DNA of 64,000 bases from Escherichia phage vB_ESM-pEJ01. The stretch lies in the sequence record OP114734.1. One strand, given 5' to 3'. The notes beneath the pieces were generated by a model, which searched no databases, was not told the origin of the DNA, and worked only from the letters and a program-made list of their open reading frames with translations. Positions 52,871-64,000 of this stretch are shown here, one piece after another (position 1 is the stretch's first letter; every line of letters begins with the position of its first letter). The translations under genes were made by a program, and so were the position numbers.

Positions 52871-52900
52871 ATTATAGGGGATCACCGATCCCCCTGTCAA
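52871..52900 (-). promoter_or_regulatory. PeSL-like early promoter unit 1 (TTGACA-N18-TATAAT, palindromic spacer)
   Basis: - strand -35 at 52895-52900, -10 at 52871-52876; spacer GGGGATC...GATCCCC. Confidence 0.6.
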
Positions 52901-58284: not shown

Positions 58285-58313
58285 ATTATAGGGGATCGGT
58301 GATCCCCTGTCAA
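58285..58313 (-). promoter_or_regulatory. PeSL-like early promoter unit 8 (TTGACA-N17-TATAAT)
   Basis: spacer GGGGATCACCGATCCCC on the - strand, same palindrome arms as unit 1 with inverted centre. Confidence 0.6.
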
Positions 58314-59688: not shown

Positions 59689-59718
59689 AGTATAGGGGAG
59701 TTTAACCTCCCCTGTCAA
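59689..59718 (-). promoter_or_regulatory. PeSL-like early promoter unit 10 (TTGACA-N18-TATACT)
   Basis: palindromic spacer GGGGAGGTTAAACTCCCC. Confidence 0.55.
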
Positions 59719-59726
59719 CAACTTTT

Positions 59727-60038
59727 TTAAAGTTTTTCCATGATAACGGTCATAATTACATCTTCTGCGCGAGCGGTCAGATTATCGGCGTCAGCATGTG
59801 GGCGGTTGGTTGTTACAGAGATAACACCGTTGCGCACTGGTTTAATATTGATATCAAGATGGTCCGCGAAACGTTCGCCAGTTACAGAATGAATTTTGGT
59901 GTTAAATTCTTTTGCCAGTGCCTTGCGAACTTCACGAATCAGGGTAGCGTTTTTCAGTTGGTTCTCCGCGCTCATGGTCTTCTGGGTGTTCATGGTTCCG
60001 TCGAAGTCAATCATTGGCAGCGTTACGATGTATTTCAT
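59727..60038 (-). CDS. hypothetical protein (103 aa), paralog of 56154-56441
   Basis: RBS GGAGAA downstream of PeSL unit 11; shared REVRKALAKEFNTK region. Confidence 0.55.
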   Translation of the reverse strand: MKYIVTLPMIDFDGTMNTQKTMSAENQLKNATLIREVRKALAKEFNTKIHSVTGERFADHLDINIKPVRNGVISVTTNRPHADADNLTARAEDVIMTVIMEKL

Positions 60039-60083: not shown

Positions 60084-60112
60084 AGTATAGGGGATATGTG
60101 ATCCCCTGTCAA
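60084..60112 (-). promoter_or_regulatory. PeSL-like early promoter unit 11 (TTGACA-N17-TATACT)
   Basis: palindromic spacer GGGGATCACATATCCCC. Confidence 0.55.
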
Positions 60113-60125
60113 CAACTTTTTTGAA

Positions 60126-60602
60126 TTATTTTTCTTGATGCTCGCGCTCGTACTTTTCGAAATAAAATTCTACTGGCTGGTCATGAATTGACAGCAAGCC
60201 AAAGCGTTTAGCCGCTCGCAATCCCATATTGCGCTGAATGTACTTCTGGAAGTTCTCGCGTATACACTTACGCCAGTATTCTAAGCCCATACAGCTTTTA
60301 TAAAGATTGCATTGCACACACGCCGGATTCATGTTATCAAGTATATCATGTTCCGGTTTATGCATTCCTACAACCTTATACTTCCACGATCCATCATCAT
60401 TACGGGCAATTCGTCCATTTTCATCATAGACTACCTTTGAGCGTCGCAATACTGGTTTGATGTGGTCTGCGTGCCAGCGATCCCCTAGTTCCTCGCCACA
60501 ATAGGCACAACGTCCACCGTATTTCATTTTCAGGATCTGGCGTTGCTCTTTCTTTGACAATTTTTTAGGTTTAGGGGCTTTCGCCCCTTCATTATCACAC
60601 AT
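60126..60602 (-). CDS. HNH endonuclease-family protein
   Basis: C-x2-C...H-A-D-H...C-x2-C (CAYCGEE, WHADHIKP, CVQCN); ATG overlaps the ligase stop by 8 nt. Confidence 0.7.
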   Translation of the reverse strand: MCDNEGAKAPKPKKLSKKEQRQILKMKYGGRCAYCGEELGDRWHADHIKPVLRRSKVVYDENGRIARNDDGSWKYKVVGMHKPEHDILDNMNPACVQCNLYKSCMGLEYWRKCIRENFQKYIQRNMGLRAAKRFGLLSIHDQPVEFYFEKYEREHQEK

Positions 60603-62091
60603 CGAATACCTCTTTTACTGTATTTGCAGTGGTCTTGTCGTAGCGAATACGTTTGATGATTGGGAGAAATAAAGAGAACTCCGGTTCATCTTCTTTACGT
60701 GATTTGCTGCGGATATACCCGTTGCATGTCATCTCAATGACTTTTCCGATCAGGTTATGCCGATCAGCCCATAACATTTCTCGGTCAAGTTCATTTCGAC
60801 GATCGAACGGAATTACACGTTCAATACCATCATCACATTTTTCGGTTGTAGTGTCGGTTAATCCCGATCCGGTGTTAGTCATCATTCGTCCGCACGCACT
60901 ACGGACAGTAAAACCGCCTACCTTATTAGGATCTTTACTATGCGGATATACATCAACAATTTCAGCGTCGAAGTCAATCACTTCTTTAAATTTAACCTGG
61001 TCTTTACTACGGCGATCTTCAAATACACCATGTAAATTTTTAAGGATAATACCTTCTAAGCCCATGTTTACATAGCGATGATATACTTCGCGAGCTTCAT
61101 CGATATTGTTAACTACAGTGTTTTCGATTATCTGAACACGAGGATCGTTAAGTTCTTCAACAATCTGTTTTAGTTCTTCGAATCGATCTTTATATTGCTT
61201 AGTTGCTTTCTCGTTTCCGTAATACACATCACGGTCGATAACATCCCAGACAGTATAAACAATACATTGGGCTTCTTCTTTTGGAATAGTTCCTTTAAGT
61301 GATTTGTTGAGGATACCATTTCCGGTCTGACGATCTGCAACAACGGATTCTTTCACTGCTTCCGCTACTGGCGTTAATGGCATTTCCTCTTCTTCAAATA
61401 TCCATGACAGAGTACCATCATAAACGCTTTCAACGAAGTTCTGCGCTGGTGTTTGCGAAAGGGTAGGCATATATACCAATTCGCCATCTAGAACAATTCC
61501 ACGGCCTCGTAGACGCTCTAAAACCGCAAACAAATCATCAAGTCCCTGATAGGTATTACCTGAACGGGTATAGATTGCTAATGTTTCCCCGTCAATATCA
61601 GCCATACCACGAGCGCCATCGCTTTTAAGTTGTGCATACGCCGGATACTTGATATTAGCAATAGTCTTATCAGAACATGACGATGCAAGGTGGCACGGCT
61701 GCTGGGGGATCAGTTTCTTCCATACCTTGTTTGCAGTGGTAGCGGAACAACCGCATTCCAGATCACGATTCAGGACCATCATTGCAACTTTAGCATCATC
61801 TTCTGACAAGCAAGTCAGAGTATCGGTAACTAGCTGTAATGCTGCGTTACCAGTTACTTGACGCGTGGCAAGTTTATTTTTAAAGACCTGTAATGCACCG
61901 GATAAAGACAATACAGACGAATAACGCGATGGTTTATCGTATTTCTTTACGCCAAACGTAACCTGTTTGCAATATGCCAGATAAAAGCATTCTTTCAGAG
62001 TTTCATTGCTTGCGGATTCTTTCAGGATCTTTTCTTTCAGCGATGTTTTGTCGGTCGCTGCAAGCTGGTTAATGATATTAAGAATTGACAT
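60595..62091 (-). CDS. 30: ATP-dependent DNA ligase gp30
   Basis: start moved to ATG at 62091 (RBS GAGGTG; track used GTG); adenylation motif KSDGAR, RDLECG and LASS motifs match T4 DNA ligase. Confidence 0.9.
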   Translation of the reverse strand: MSILNIINQLAATDKTSLKEKILKESASNETLKECFYLAYCKQVTFGVKKYDKPSRYSSVLSLSGALQVFKNKLATRQVTGNAALQLVTDTLTCLSEDDAKVAMMVLNRDLECGCSATTANKVWKKLIPQQPCHLASSCSDKTIANIKYPAYAQLKSDGARGMADIDGETLAIYTRSGNTYQGLDDLFAVLERLRGRGIVLDGELVYMPTLSQTPAQNFVESVYDGTLSWIFEEEEMPLTPVAEAVKESVVADRQTGNGILNKSLKGTIPKEEAQCIVYTVWDVIDRDVYYGNEKATKQYKDRFEELKQIVEELNDPRVQIIENTVVNNIDEAREVYHRYVNMGLEGIILKNLHGVFEDRRSKDQVKFKEVIDFDAEIVDVYPHSKDPNKVGGFTVRSACGRMMTNTGSGLTDTTTEKCDDGIERVIPFDRRNELDREMLWADRHNLIGKVIEMTCNGYIRSKSRKEDEPEFSLFLPIIKRIRYDKTTANTVKEVFDV

Positions 62092-62557
62092 TTTCACCTC
62101 GTTTTGTTAAACGTTCACGAATATCATTGAGGATACTACAAAATTCCGATTCAGTCAATATAGTCTTTAACGGATCAGTTCCACCTATGCTATGACGTAA
62201 TTTCTTATTTCCGGTAGCGAGTAATGCTTTACAAAATTCTGGGTTATTCCGTGCCATCGTAACAAATGCCAGATGTACCAGTCTGTAATAATGCTCACTC
62301 ATTCGATGAATCTGGCGACCCTGAAAATATAACAGGTGATTCTCAATCTTTTCAGTTCTTCCGGTTCTTTTTGCTTTGCCACCGTGCATCAAAAAGATTT
62401 CTCTTTGTCTCTGGGGGTTCTTAAATCTTAGCCCCTGTAAAAATCCTTCTGTGCTGTTAATATCGCAACCAAATAAACGGAATGGTCTTTTATTGAAATT
62501 ACTCAATTCACCCGATGGATAAGGTCCACCCGCATAGATATCAATTTCAGAAGTCAT
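62078..62557 (-). CDS. NADAR (YbiA-like, DUF1768) domain protein
   Basis: IYAGGPYPSGELSNF, STEGFLQGLRF and ALLATG parallel the E. coli YbiA motifs (FSNF, TSEHYFQAQKF, ALLLAT); stop overlaps the ligase start. Confidence 0.75.
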   Translation of the reverse strand: MTSEIDIYAGGPYPSGELSNFNKRPFRLFGCDINSTEGFLQGLRFKNPQRQREIFLMHGGKAKRTGRTEKIENHLLYFQGRQIHRMSEHYYRLVHLAFVTMARNNPEFCKALLATGNKKLRHSIGGTDPLKTILTESEFCSILNDIRERLTKRGENVNS

Positions 62558-62710
62558 TGAAACTAATCTCGCTAATTAGAGAGAACGGATCATAATCGTC
62601 ATTAGGAATATCGATAGTAATCGAATGAGGATTTACCCATACACCAAACTGGCCTTCTTCGGTGAATACTTCGGTATGGATTTCGTGGATGTTTACATTC
62701 ATAGTTTTCA
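62551..62710 (-). CDS. possible small protein (53 aa)
   Basis: manually found ORF MKTMNVNIHEIH...; overlaps the NADAR start by 7 nt; weak support. Confidence 0.3.
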
Positions 62711-62794
62711 TAATAAAATTTCCTTAATAATCAATAACTTACAAAATCATATAGCCAAAATATAGGCGGGATTATTTCCCGCCGTTTAAAATCA

Positions 62795-63118
62795 TTAACC
62801 GTAAACTACCACAATATTCTGTTTGTGTGTTACAGTCCATTTCAGGTCGATCTCTTCTTCCTTCTTAACGCCGTTAATAACGTCTGGATGAGGAACTTTA
62901 TTAAGTTTCCCATGAGGAAGCAATACAGTCTTGCCCAGCAATTCTTTATCAACGTTATCACCGATATCAATAATTTTACCGACTAAAGGAATCTCTCCCA
63001 TAGTTCTTTTTTGCTCGATGATAATACCAAAATCGCTCTTTACTTCTGTCCCTGCGCTTTCCGCTTTAGCTTCAATGATCACATAGTCACCAAGTGCTTT
63101 AGGAGTTTTAACGGTCAT
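62795..63118 (-). CDS. 31: GroES-like co-chaperonin gp31
   Basis: 107 aa; GDYVII...GE.P...NVPHP pattern matches T4 gp31 (GEYVIL...NVPHP). Confidence 0.75.
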   Translation of the reverse strand: MTVKTPKALGDYVIIEAKAESAGTEVKSDFGIIIEQKRTMGEIPLVGKIIDIGDNVDKELLGKTVLLPHGKLNKVPHPDVINGVKKEEEIDLKWTVTHKQNIVVVYG

Positions 63119-63154
63119 AATTTTCTTACCTCTTCAATTCATCTCAATAGTAAA

Positions 63155-63766
63155 TTATTTATATTTCGCGACCTTTGGATTTCGCCGCAGACCGGAATGT
63201 ATTTGCGCTATACAACAATAAGAAACATTAAACATATCAGCTATAATTTGCTTCTTAACTTTTCCTTTAAGCCGCATTATTTCTTCGACTTGCGCATTTG
63301 TCAGTTTTGCCCGTGAGTGGTTTTCACCGACATTGTTATTGAGTCCAGTTCTAAATGAATGTCTCATATTTTCTAGTAAGGTTACTATTTCTAGATTCCA
63401 CACATAATTGCAGGTTTTTACACCATTGATGTGATTAACCTCAAGTCCGGTAACGTCTCCTAGAAATGCATTTGCTACAAGTCGATGTATCTTTTCGGCT
63501 TTAACTGAGATTTTACCATTGTCGTTTTGTTTTGACAATGTTGAATAATAATATCCATATCGGTCTAAAATTGGTTTTATTATTTTACCAGCACGTTTTT
63601 GTTTTACGAGCTTAATATTACCGGGAGAAACTTCTCTATAAAATTCGATACTTCGGTCAATAGATCTCAACCTACCATAATTAGAGATTTCATACCACGG
63701 ATAACCTACAGCTTGTCTCCATTCTTCCGGTGCTGGTAATATGATATTATCATCTTTTGTTTCCAT
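63155..63766 (-). CDS. HNH homing endonuclease (NUMOD4 / HNH / C-terminal HTH)
   Basis: WYEISNYGRLRS (NUMOD4-like), HRLVANAFLG...EVNHINGVKT (HNH), C-terminal helix-turn-helix-like NVSYCCIAQIHSG; start moved to ATG at 63766 (track used TTG). Confidence 0.75.
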   Translation of the reverse strand: METKDDNIILPAPEEWRQAVGYPWYEISNYGRLRSIDRSIEFYREVSPGNIKLVKQKRAGKIIKPILDRYGYYYSTLSKQNDNGKISVKAEKIHRLVANAFLGDVTGLEVNHINGVKTCNYVWNLEIVTLLENMRHSFRTGLNNNVGENHSRAKLTNAQVEEIMRLKGKVKKQIIADMFNVSYCCIAQIHSGLRRNPKVAKYK

Positions 63767-63768
63767 TG

Positions 63769-64000
63769 TCAACTGCCACCGTGAATTTCGACGATCTGCG
63801 CTGGAGTCAGCCCGTCCACATTAATCAGACTATCAAGCCCAAAACTACGGAAACCTTCAACTGCAATTTCATATACTGGCAAAGATGTTTCTGATTCTTT
63901 ACGCGGTTTTTCAACATTCGGAACTAACCACTTTTCGTATGTTTCGAAAGGCATCAGTGCCGGATCTCGCGTGGCGATCATATCTCGGACAGTACCATCT
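63769..64000 (-). CDS. partial CDS (C-terminal part; 5' end lies beyond the window)
   Basis: reading frame stays open to the window edge; identity not recognised. Confidence 0.4.
   Translation of the reverse strand, partial: DGTVRDMIATRDPALMPFETYEKWLVPNVEKPRKESETSLPVYEIAVEGFRSFGLDSLINVDGLTPAQIVEIHGGS

Follow-up and report, generated by a model that had tools for sequence, protein, structure and literature searches.

A ligase-linked HNH nuclease gene of Krischvirus phages is probably a resident, vertically inherited gene rather than a mobile element

The closest described counterpart of the gene studied here is ORF212c of the T4-type coliphage RB49. Its product, RB49p212 (NP_891783.1), is annotated as "HNH endonuclease" in the RefSeq record of RB49, directly after gene 30, and Nolan et al. 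(2006, PMC1524935) grouped RB49ORF212c with the "putative mobile DNA elements". For RB49 and phi1, Petrov et al. (2010, PMC2993671) counted one putative homing endonuclease gene each in the "other HNH" category. We analyzed the corresponding gene in a 64,000-nucleotide stretch of Escherichia phage vB_ESM-pEJ01 (OP114734.1; the whole stretch is hereafter the window), where it overlaps the end of gene 30, the DNA ligase gene. The gene is annotated in public records and so is already known, and the original prediction for this DNA, that it is a selfish, mobile nuclease, therefore repeats an annotation-level view. That prediction did not hold up against the universal presence of the gene, its co-divergence with the ligase, strong purifying selection, and a junction that showed neither a valley of diversity nor dimorphism. 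These results suggest that the HNH gene is a resident of the genome rather than an element on the move.

The window belongs to Krischvirus, the RB49-like T4-type coliphages; a 4-kb query from it matched RB49, phi1, JSE, GEC-3S, and others with 95-99% identity. The gene is the same as RB49 ORF212c and phi1p212, with DNA identities of 99.6% (RB49) and 98.1% (phi1), and shares with them the position after gene 30 and an overlap of 8 nucleotides (nt). The window differs from RB49 in having no ORF211 downstream and in the C-terminal residues, which are EHQEK in the window and ENKE in RB49. The junction contains the following features.

60126..60602, minus strand: HNH nuclease gene, 158 amino acids (aa), ATG at 60602-60600; orthologue of RB49 ORF212c/RB49p212.
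60595..62091, minus strand: gene 30, ATP-dependent DNA ligase, 498 aa, ATG at 62091; Pfam DNA_ligase_A_M, E=2.8e-22, and RB49 annotation.
60595..60602, minus strand: 8-nt overlap ATGTGTGA, formed by the start codon of HNH and the stop codon of the ligase.
60609..60612, minus strand: Shine-Dalgarno GAGG of the HNH gene, 6 nt 5' of the ATG, within ligase codons.
60574..60587, minus strand: RNA hairpin GGGGC-GAAA-GCCCC, at +16..+29 of the HNH reading frame.

The mechanical open reading frame (ORF) of the ligase spans 60595..62097 on the minus strand (500 aa, GTG start at 62097); the ATG at 62091 is the likelier start, and the stop codon is the TGA at 60597-60595. A 158-aa HNH gene overlapping the ligase stop by 8 nt had been predicted, and the ORF coordinates, Pfam, and PHROG confirmed it, on the minus strand. 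Because it has a Pfam HNH match, a PHROG 2118 match, 358 homologues, and a very low ratio of non-synonymous to synonymous substitution rates (dN/dS), the ORF is a true gene rather than a reading frame that arose by chance. The overlap ATGTGTGA was identical in 11 of 11 aligned Krischvirus sequences, and the Shine-Dalgarno sequence is annotated as a ribosome-binding site in Ec_Makalu_002. Overlaps are common in this part of the RB49 annotation (7 of 22 same-strand junctions, one other of which is likewise exactly 8 nt). The ligase/HNH overlap is nothing unusual for such a genome.

The junction, the gene alone, and the 4-kb region were used as blastn queries against 50,697 phage records. With the gene alone, the HNH gene was found in 58 records, all of Krischvirus, at 96.6-100% identity. 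The ligase 3' end (at least 90% identity) was present in the same 58 records, and the HNH gene accompanied it in 58/58; when six RefSeq/GenBank duplicate pairs were reduced, 52 genomes remained, every one with the gene. Full-length copies were also carried by three metagenomic Krischvirus contigs (L029, L033, and L034). An HNH-less ligase junction was found neither in the 50,697 phage records nor in the IMG/VR scan or the metagenome contigs (ligase C-terminal profile). The apparent 59th record of the 4-kb search was a 1.5-kb fragment of RB49 gp31. Universal presence at this position, with no sign of mobility, had been named in advance as the outcome that would refute the prediction, and it is what we observed, the gene being present in all 58 records and in three diverged lineages described below. 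Sporadic presence and absence, a mark of free-standing homing endonuclease genes, was not seen at this junction.

Selection on the gene was estimated by the Nei-Gojobori method from eight alleles, the most divergent ones included. Within the genus, dN/dS was 0.023 for HNH, 0.043 for the ligase, 0.034 for gp30.3, and 0.046 for gp31. Synonymous divergence (dS) was 0.156 for HNH and 0.122 for the ligase, and that of HNH was no lower than that of its flanks. Among 34 variable HNH codons, the amino acid was altered in 4, and two of these lie in the alternative C-terminal end. Among the isolates listed, tblastn gave single-piece alignments over residues 1-157/158 with at least 97.5% identity, and no frameshifted copy was seen. 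Nucleotide diversity (pi), calculated in a sliding window over 11 sequences, was 0.03-0.054 in HNH and 0.02-0.05 in the ligase, and revealed no low-diversity valley and no two-allele classes at ligase/HNH in these sequences. Because pi is flat, dS is not lowered, and the flanks are not dimorphic, HNH bears no signature of a sweep or of co-conversion; the dimorphic or overly homogeneous flanks expected of co-conversion around a homing endonuclease gene were not observed. The guanine-cytosine content of HNH matches that of the resident genome, being 43.6% in the 40.6% Krischvirus genome and 36% in the 35% contig of the diverged lineage L005.

A single nonsense allele was observed. In L029 (P0002; Logan contig of ERR14656784, 3001..3330), TGG is changed to TAG at W110, which cuts HNH to 109 aa, and the downstream frame is otherwise intact. 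This stop codon could be a recent natural knockout or else a sequence or assembly error. Two further aberrant copies were set aside. P0004 on L028 (5001..5504, ENA scaffold_8678) is chimeric after codon 75, near the scaffold end, and is probably a mis-assembly. In P0005 on L035, single bases are missing at three homopolymer positions, and the end is chimeric, with a piece of the window 59130 region in inverted orientation; sequencing error is likely.

The HNH gene also follows the ligase gene in three uncultured T4-type lineages, whose ligases are 52-71% identical to that of Krischvirus and to one another. These lineages had no cultured representative in the phage collection searched and look like sister genera of Krischvirus, as judged from their sequences. 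Their copies are as follows.

L005/L006 (P0003): HNH 70% identical in aa to the window; directly after the ligase, 1-nt overlap (TAATG).
L113-L116 (P0121), including 168- and 169-kb contigs: HNH 61% identical; gene order pseT-cd-31.1-31-orf-30.3-30-HNH, 23-nt overlap.
L117 (P0122): HNH 59% identical; upstream order as in L113 from 31.1 to gene 30 (gene 31 and the small ORF assigned by position and size), 16-nt spacer.

P0003, P0121, and P0122 likewise matched PHROG 2118. Comparison of the proteins of the region gave the following aa identities.

Window and L113: HNH 61%, ligase 55%, 30.3 51%, gp31 59%.
Window and L117: HNH 59%, ligase 62%, 30.3 51%, gp31 63%.
L113 and L117: HNH 57%, ligase 52%, 30.3 53%, gp31 58%.
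Window and L005: HNH 70%, ligase 71% (C-terminal part).

The C-terminal 246 aa of the L005 ligase are 70-71% identical to the window ligase, and the non-synonymous divergence (dN) between the window and L005 was 0.226 for HNH and 0.216 for the C-terminal part of the ligase. HNH divergence keeps pace with that of the ligase, gp30.3, and gp31. The adjacency of HNH to the ligase is ancient, and the exact 8-nt overlap is specific to Krischvirus. One acquisition in the common ancestor of the four lineages, followed by vertical inheritance with the ligase, would be the simplest history. These results indicate that, since its acquisition, HNH has been inherited together with the ligase under purifying selection as strong as that on the ligase, and that in the sampled population it does not now behave as a mobile element. 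Outside this clade, the next-nearest ligases, those of Slopekvirus and Pseudotevenvirus, are approximately 50% identical, and those of T-even phages lower; blastn of the ligase beyond the clade gave only short DNA matches of 67-70%. The position after the ligase was also considered as a general slot for nucleases and rejected as such, as Slopekvirus, Pseudotevenvirus, and T6 hold unrelated small ORFs there. No nuclease signature was found in the Slopekvirus post-ligase ORF.

A second HNH gene of the window served as a positive control for these analyses.

63155..63772, minus strand: ORF of a NUMOD4 + HNH_3 gene, 205 aa, between gp31.1 and gp31, upstream of gp31.

This gene was present in only 11 of the 58 Krischvirus records. 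It forms a clean 642-bp insertion (63142..63783), and in genomes without it the flanks are exactly joined. For the adjoining gp31 (62795..63118), identity to the window was 98.8% in both carriers examined and 86-87% in five non-carriers, and nucleotide diversity climbed to 0.106 near the insertion. Presence and absence together with gp31 dimorphism is the pattern that a mobile homing endonuclease leaves through co-conversion. Since mobility was seen here, the same methods would have revealed mobility at the ligase junction.

The HNH protein scored 27.0 bits with Pfam HNH PF01844 (cut-off 21.4, E=5e-6). The alignment is confined to the N-terminal half of the profile, since the motif is interrupted by a hairpin insertion of 34 residues. 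The match to PHROG 2118 "HNH endonuclease" (E=7.9e-55) covered residues 4-157, the C-terminal domain included, and an exhaustive phmmer search gave the 358 homologues at E<=1e-10. In a 65-member alignment of the family, C32, C35, H44, D46, H47, N90, C95, C98, N99, and K102 were invariant or nearly so; all of these except H44 were fully invariant. The family-specific C-terminal residues W110, R111, R129, G135, F146, F148, and E149 were also conserved, and all conserved residues of the HNH core and C-terminal part are retained in all four ligase-linked lineages. By these residues, the protein would have two CxxC pairs for zinc (C32/C35 and C95/C98), the catalytic D-H, the structural N, and the metal-ligand N/H of an HNH nuclease.

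The AlphaFold2 model of the protein (mean predicted local distance difference test score 92.5) predicts an N-terminal basic tail and helix (1-28), a zinc-bound HNH core with a beta-beta-alpha-metal fold, a beta-hairpin insertion (52-85), and a C-terminal three-helix domain (107-156). The model fold is nearest to HNH domains of the McrA, Cas9, Cap5, and PtuB type, and among solved folds, HNH domains that nick or are strand-specific come closest. Foldseek of the model against the PDB gave no match below E=0.058, a sequence search of solved structures gave marginal HNH matches only (E>=0.19), and the structure matches in BFVD were to uncharacterised phage proteins only. Pfam revealed no NUMOD, AP2, IENR1, or helix-turn-helix (HTH) module in the whole protein or in its C-terminal 54 residues; the conserved C-terminal helical domain could conceivably bind DNA. 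NCBIfam and PADLOC gave only sub-threshold matches to retron/PtuB type HNH (PADLOC E>=5e-4), and the gene is therefore not a component of a known defence system.

Around the junction, a block of approximately 100 nt (60540-60640) shows no variation among 10 of 11 Krischvirus sequences, synonymous sites included, and the fold of the 111-nt junction RNA had z=-2.5 against shuffled sequences. Within the block, the perfect hairpin GGGGC-GAAA-GCCCC sits in a 24-nt segment (DNEGAKAP) that is missing from the three sister lineages. Speculatively, this hairpin after the ATG may be a translational control element that restrains independent initiation at the HNH start.

The following features define the transcription unit in which the gene lies.

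62765..62783, minus strand: terminator-like hairpin after gp31, the upstream bound of the operon; annotated as a terminator in G2494 and Makalu_002.
62547..62711, minus strand: orf54, upstream cistron of the operon.
62078..62557, minus strand: gp30.3, upstream cistron of the operon.
60084..60125, minus strand: PeSL cassette directly 3' of the HNH stop, with an AT-rich tract, -35 TTGACA, stem-loop GGGGATCACATATCCCC, and -10 TATACT.

Successive overlaps of orf54/30.3/30/HNH are 11, 14, and 8 nt. Consensus scanning revealed no strong promoter or terminator between the ligase and HNH, with only weak 9-of-12 promoter-like matches; this promoter scan yielded no more sites than shuffled sequence. The sole terminator-like hairpin inside the operon is a weak one at 61498-61513. 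Because four overlapping ORFs lie between two hairpins with no strong internal signal, co-transcription and translational coupling of the ligase and HNH are plausible from the operon layout.

In the PeSL cassette, TTGACA (60112-60107) is followed by GGGGATCACATATCCCC and then by TATACT (60089-60084). Three further copies of the form TTGACA-GGGG...CCCC-TATA lie on the minus strand at 59691-59718, 58287-58313, and 52873-52900. PeSL stem-loops terminate transcription, and the cassettes are strong early promoters that mediate shuffling of the ORFans they flank (Arbiol et al. 2010, PMC2839356). By analogy, the PeSL after HNH would mark the end of the ligase-HNH transcript and the start of the next. 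HNH is thus the final gene of a conserved module and borders the hyperplastic region; genomes begin to differ 16 nt within its 3' end. A breakpoint in that end (window 60126..60142) gives two C-terminal variants, EHQEK and ENKE, each directly before the stop codon. An extra ORF lies directly after HNH in RB49 and G2494 (L001 3636..3980; L026 3220..3480), and that of RB49 is ORF211, described as a homologue of an integron ORF. Further downstream, the ORF at 59727..60038 (103 aa, phrog_7474), which is RB49 ORFan210 by position, is flanked by two PeSLs. L012, SFHK24, and Makalu_002 lack it and have the window flanks 60067 and 59744, at the PeSLs, joined; this absence is consistent with recombination between the two PeSLs.

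Beyond the ligase-linked lineages, homologues with less than approximately 50% identity occur in siphoviruses and prophages, each as one small gene within a replication, recombination, or nin region. Examples are as follows.

HK225 gp55: family homologue.
Sasha gp76: family homologue adjoining a methyltransferase and ParB.
eiAU-183 copy: family homologue between DNA polymerase and helicase.
Bcep176 gp50: family homologue.
A contig with RecT: family homologue.

The straboviral Morganella phage vB_Mm5 has a 52% homologue in its tk/regB region, far from the ligase (L002 3986..4414 / L119 33607..34035), which may have inserted there independently or may be a translocated member of the same family. 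Since homologues occupy unrelated loci in other phages, the family has been mobile over long times, and an origin of the HNH gene as a homing element is plausible. Among copies whose neighbours were annotated or domain-assigned, none had the setting of a virion-packaging module; a 516-nt ORF that adjoins the vB_Mm5 copy is labelled "terminase large subunit", a label taken here as annotated.

Taken as a whole, we consider it reasonably probable that this is a resident, vertically inherited HNH gene, the last cistron of an early operon, that serves the phage and is not currently mobile. That the gene is fixed and vertically inherited is very probable. That it is kept because of a service to the phage, rather than by continued homing against unsampled relatives, is moderately probable on the present comparisons. 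An ancestor of Krischvirus and of at least three uncultured sister lineages would have gained a small HNH gene of PF01844 type, a member of the PHROG 2118 family. This gene, perhaps a free-standing homing endonuclease on arrival, would have inserted at the 3' end of gene 30, bordering the hyperplastic region. The protein would be a nuclease that is stabilised by zinc and depends on a divalent metal, in which D46-H47 would form the general-base motif and N99 would be a metal ligand. Ribosomes that terminate at the stop codon of the ligase and reinitiate at the overlapping ATG would synthesize it at a low level, and the invariant hairpin past the ATG may limit independent initiation. The nuclease would then serve the phage by acting in trans on DNA. 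Because of the solved folds closest to the model, nicking or structure-directed activity would be the most likely kind, either in the DNA metabolism of the phage or against competing DNA. We give a small chance to a bolder version, in which HNH would be a domesticated core gene of a multi-genus T4-type clade (Krischvirus and at least three uncultured lineages) with a job tied to its position, for example as a nickase that initiates recombination where the hyperplastic region borders the gene and so drives PeSL shuffling downstream, or else as an early anti-competitor weapon whose collateral nicks are repaired by the co-expressed ligase.

Several points weigh against the reading of a resident, phage-serving gene. 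The benefit to the phage is one that we infer from conservation alone, and a homing endonuclease that meets unsampled HNH-less relatives could also stay under purifying selection. The L029 nonsense codon, if real, means that HNH can be lost without immediate lethality. The family has been mobile, since its members lie at unrelated loci in other phages, straboviral vB_Mm5 among them. The gene lies exactly at a boundary of genetic exchange, a position typical of homing nucleases (PMC10448857), and the literature classes it as a putative mobile element (PMC1524935, PMC2993671).

A first alternative is an active free-standing homing endonuclease that would cut HNH-less ligase regions of related genomes, be copied by recombinational repair, and be fixed in the sampled genomes only because it has already swept. 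Tight translational control has been reported for phage homing endonuclease genes in work on mobE and I-TevI, and the invariant start hairpin resembles such control. The protein has an HNH nuclease domain, its family is found at unrelated loci of unrelated phages, published surveys include it among putative homing endonucleases (PMC1524935, PMC2993671), and its gene lies beside an essential conserved gene and a recombination boundary, like the T4 seg/mob genes (PMC2988022, PMC10448857). We nevertheless regard active homing as unlikely. No HNH-less junction was found in the 58 records, the 3 metagenome contigs, or the 3 diverged lineages, and HNH diverged as much as the ligase across lineages of 52-71% identity, so that its residence is far beyond what a homing cycle would allow without decay. 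The low dN/dS with no frameshifted copy among the isolates listed, the lack of a low-diversity tract or dimorphic flank, and the lack of a DNA-targeting module detectable by Pfam are also contrary to homing. Ligases outside the clade (at most approximately 50% aa identity, with short DNA matches only) are so diverged that homologous repair is not feasible.

The remaining alternatives concern the task of the nuclease. One version of a phage-useful role is an anti-competitor or host-takeover nuclease that would degrade or nick the host chromosome, plasmids, or co-infecting phages early in infection; we rate it as rather improbable. An early operon location, strong conservation, and a modelled fold nearest to HNH domains that attack foreign DNA would agree with it, but the PADLOC matches are marginal, and we know of no modification of Krischvirus DNA that would shield it against its own non-specific nuclease. 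RB49-type phages are without the hydroxymethylcytosine system and denB, so that another nuclease strategy is conceivable, but denA is reported in all enterobacterial T4 relatives (PMC2993671). A role like that of endonuclease VII, in which the protein would resolve junctions or act as a repair nuclease and partner the ligase in recombination or repair, is very improbable. Weak profile matches to PHROGs labelled "endonuclease VII" (phrog_1035, 1e-9; phrog_2914, 6e-7), a size like that of T4 gp49 (158 vs 157 aa), and the adjacent ligase point in this direction, whereas Pfam gave HNH alone at E<=0.01, with no Endonuclease_7 match. RB49 has its own gene 49 (RB49p061), as does Morganella vB_Mm5, and RB49 also has genes 46/47; the HNH nuclease is therefore no replacement for them, and its membership of the endonuclease VII (gp49) family was rejected in view of the fold score, the gene context, and the separate gene 49. 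We see hardly any chance that the protein is a packaging accessory like HK97 gp74 or GVE2 HNHE, stimulating cutting by terminase. T4-type phages package by a headful mechanism with the nuclease of the large terminase, and the gene lies in the early ligase operon, with homologues in replication or early regions; neither in Krischvirus nor in the annotated homologue-bearing phages does it have terminase or portal neighbours, save the one labelled ORF in vB_Mm5. We therefore rejected its assignment to terminase-associated HNH proteins of the HK97 gp74 type.

The impact of reading the gene as a resident, phage-serving one is limited, as the gene is annotated and reviews of T4-type phages already include it among putative homing endonucleases. 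The correction is that a "putative mobile element" acts as a fixed gene, one whose co-divergence with the ligase extends over at least four genus-level lineages. Counts of mobile elements should therefore list it as a candidate domesticated nuclease. The fixed and the polymorphic HNH genes, 2.5 kb apart, offer a natural contrast and a model for how homing nucleases become resident. There is also a minor practical value for phage therapy collections, in which Krischvirus phages are used: this nuclease gene is core-like and conserved rather than unstable.

Compared with the free-standing homing endonucleases of T4-type phages (SegG of the GIY-YIG type, MobE of the HNH type, and the NUMOD4/AP2-HNH proteins), the window HNH is likewise a small nuclease gene beside a conserved gene of DNA metabolism, tightly packed in an operon and at a boundary of genetic exchange. 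In contrast to them, it is not sporadic and has no dimorphism of flanking alleles, and Pfam recognised no DNA-targeting module in it. Its HNH subtype is PF01844 (Cas9/McrA type) and not the HNH_3 of the second HNH gene of the window; the NUMOD4 + HNH_3 gene fits the class of T4-type homing endonucleases, whereas the ligase-linked gene does not. Relative to small phage HNH nickases and accessory nucleases of the PF01844 type (Geobacter Gme HNH, 4H9D; GVE2 HNHE, 5H0O; HK97 gp74), the window HNH has an additional beta-hairpin insertion and the conserved C-terminal three-helix domain, and it lacks linkage to a terminase. The new functions of ICP1 Odn and yeast HO are known, whereas for the window HNH we only infer descent from a homing element. 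Like the window HNH, both are nucleases of mobile families that have become fixed and vertically inherited under purifying selection (PMC10448857, PMC8987985).

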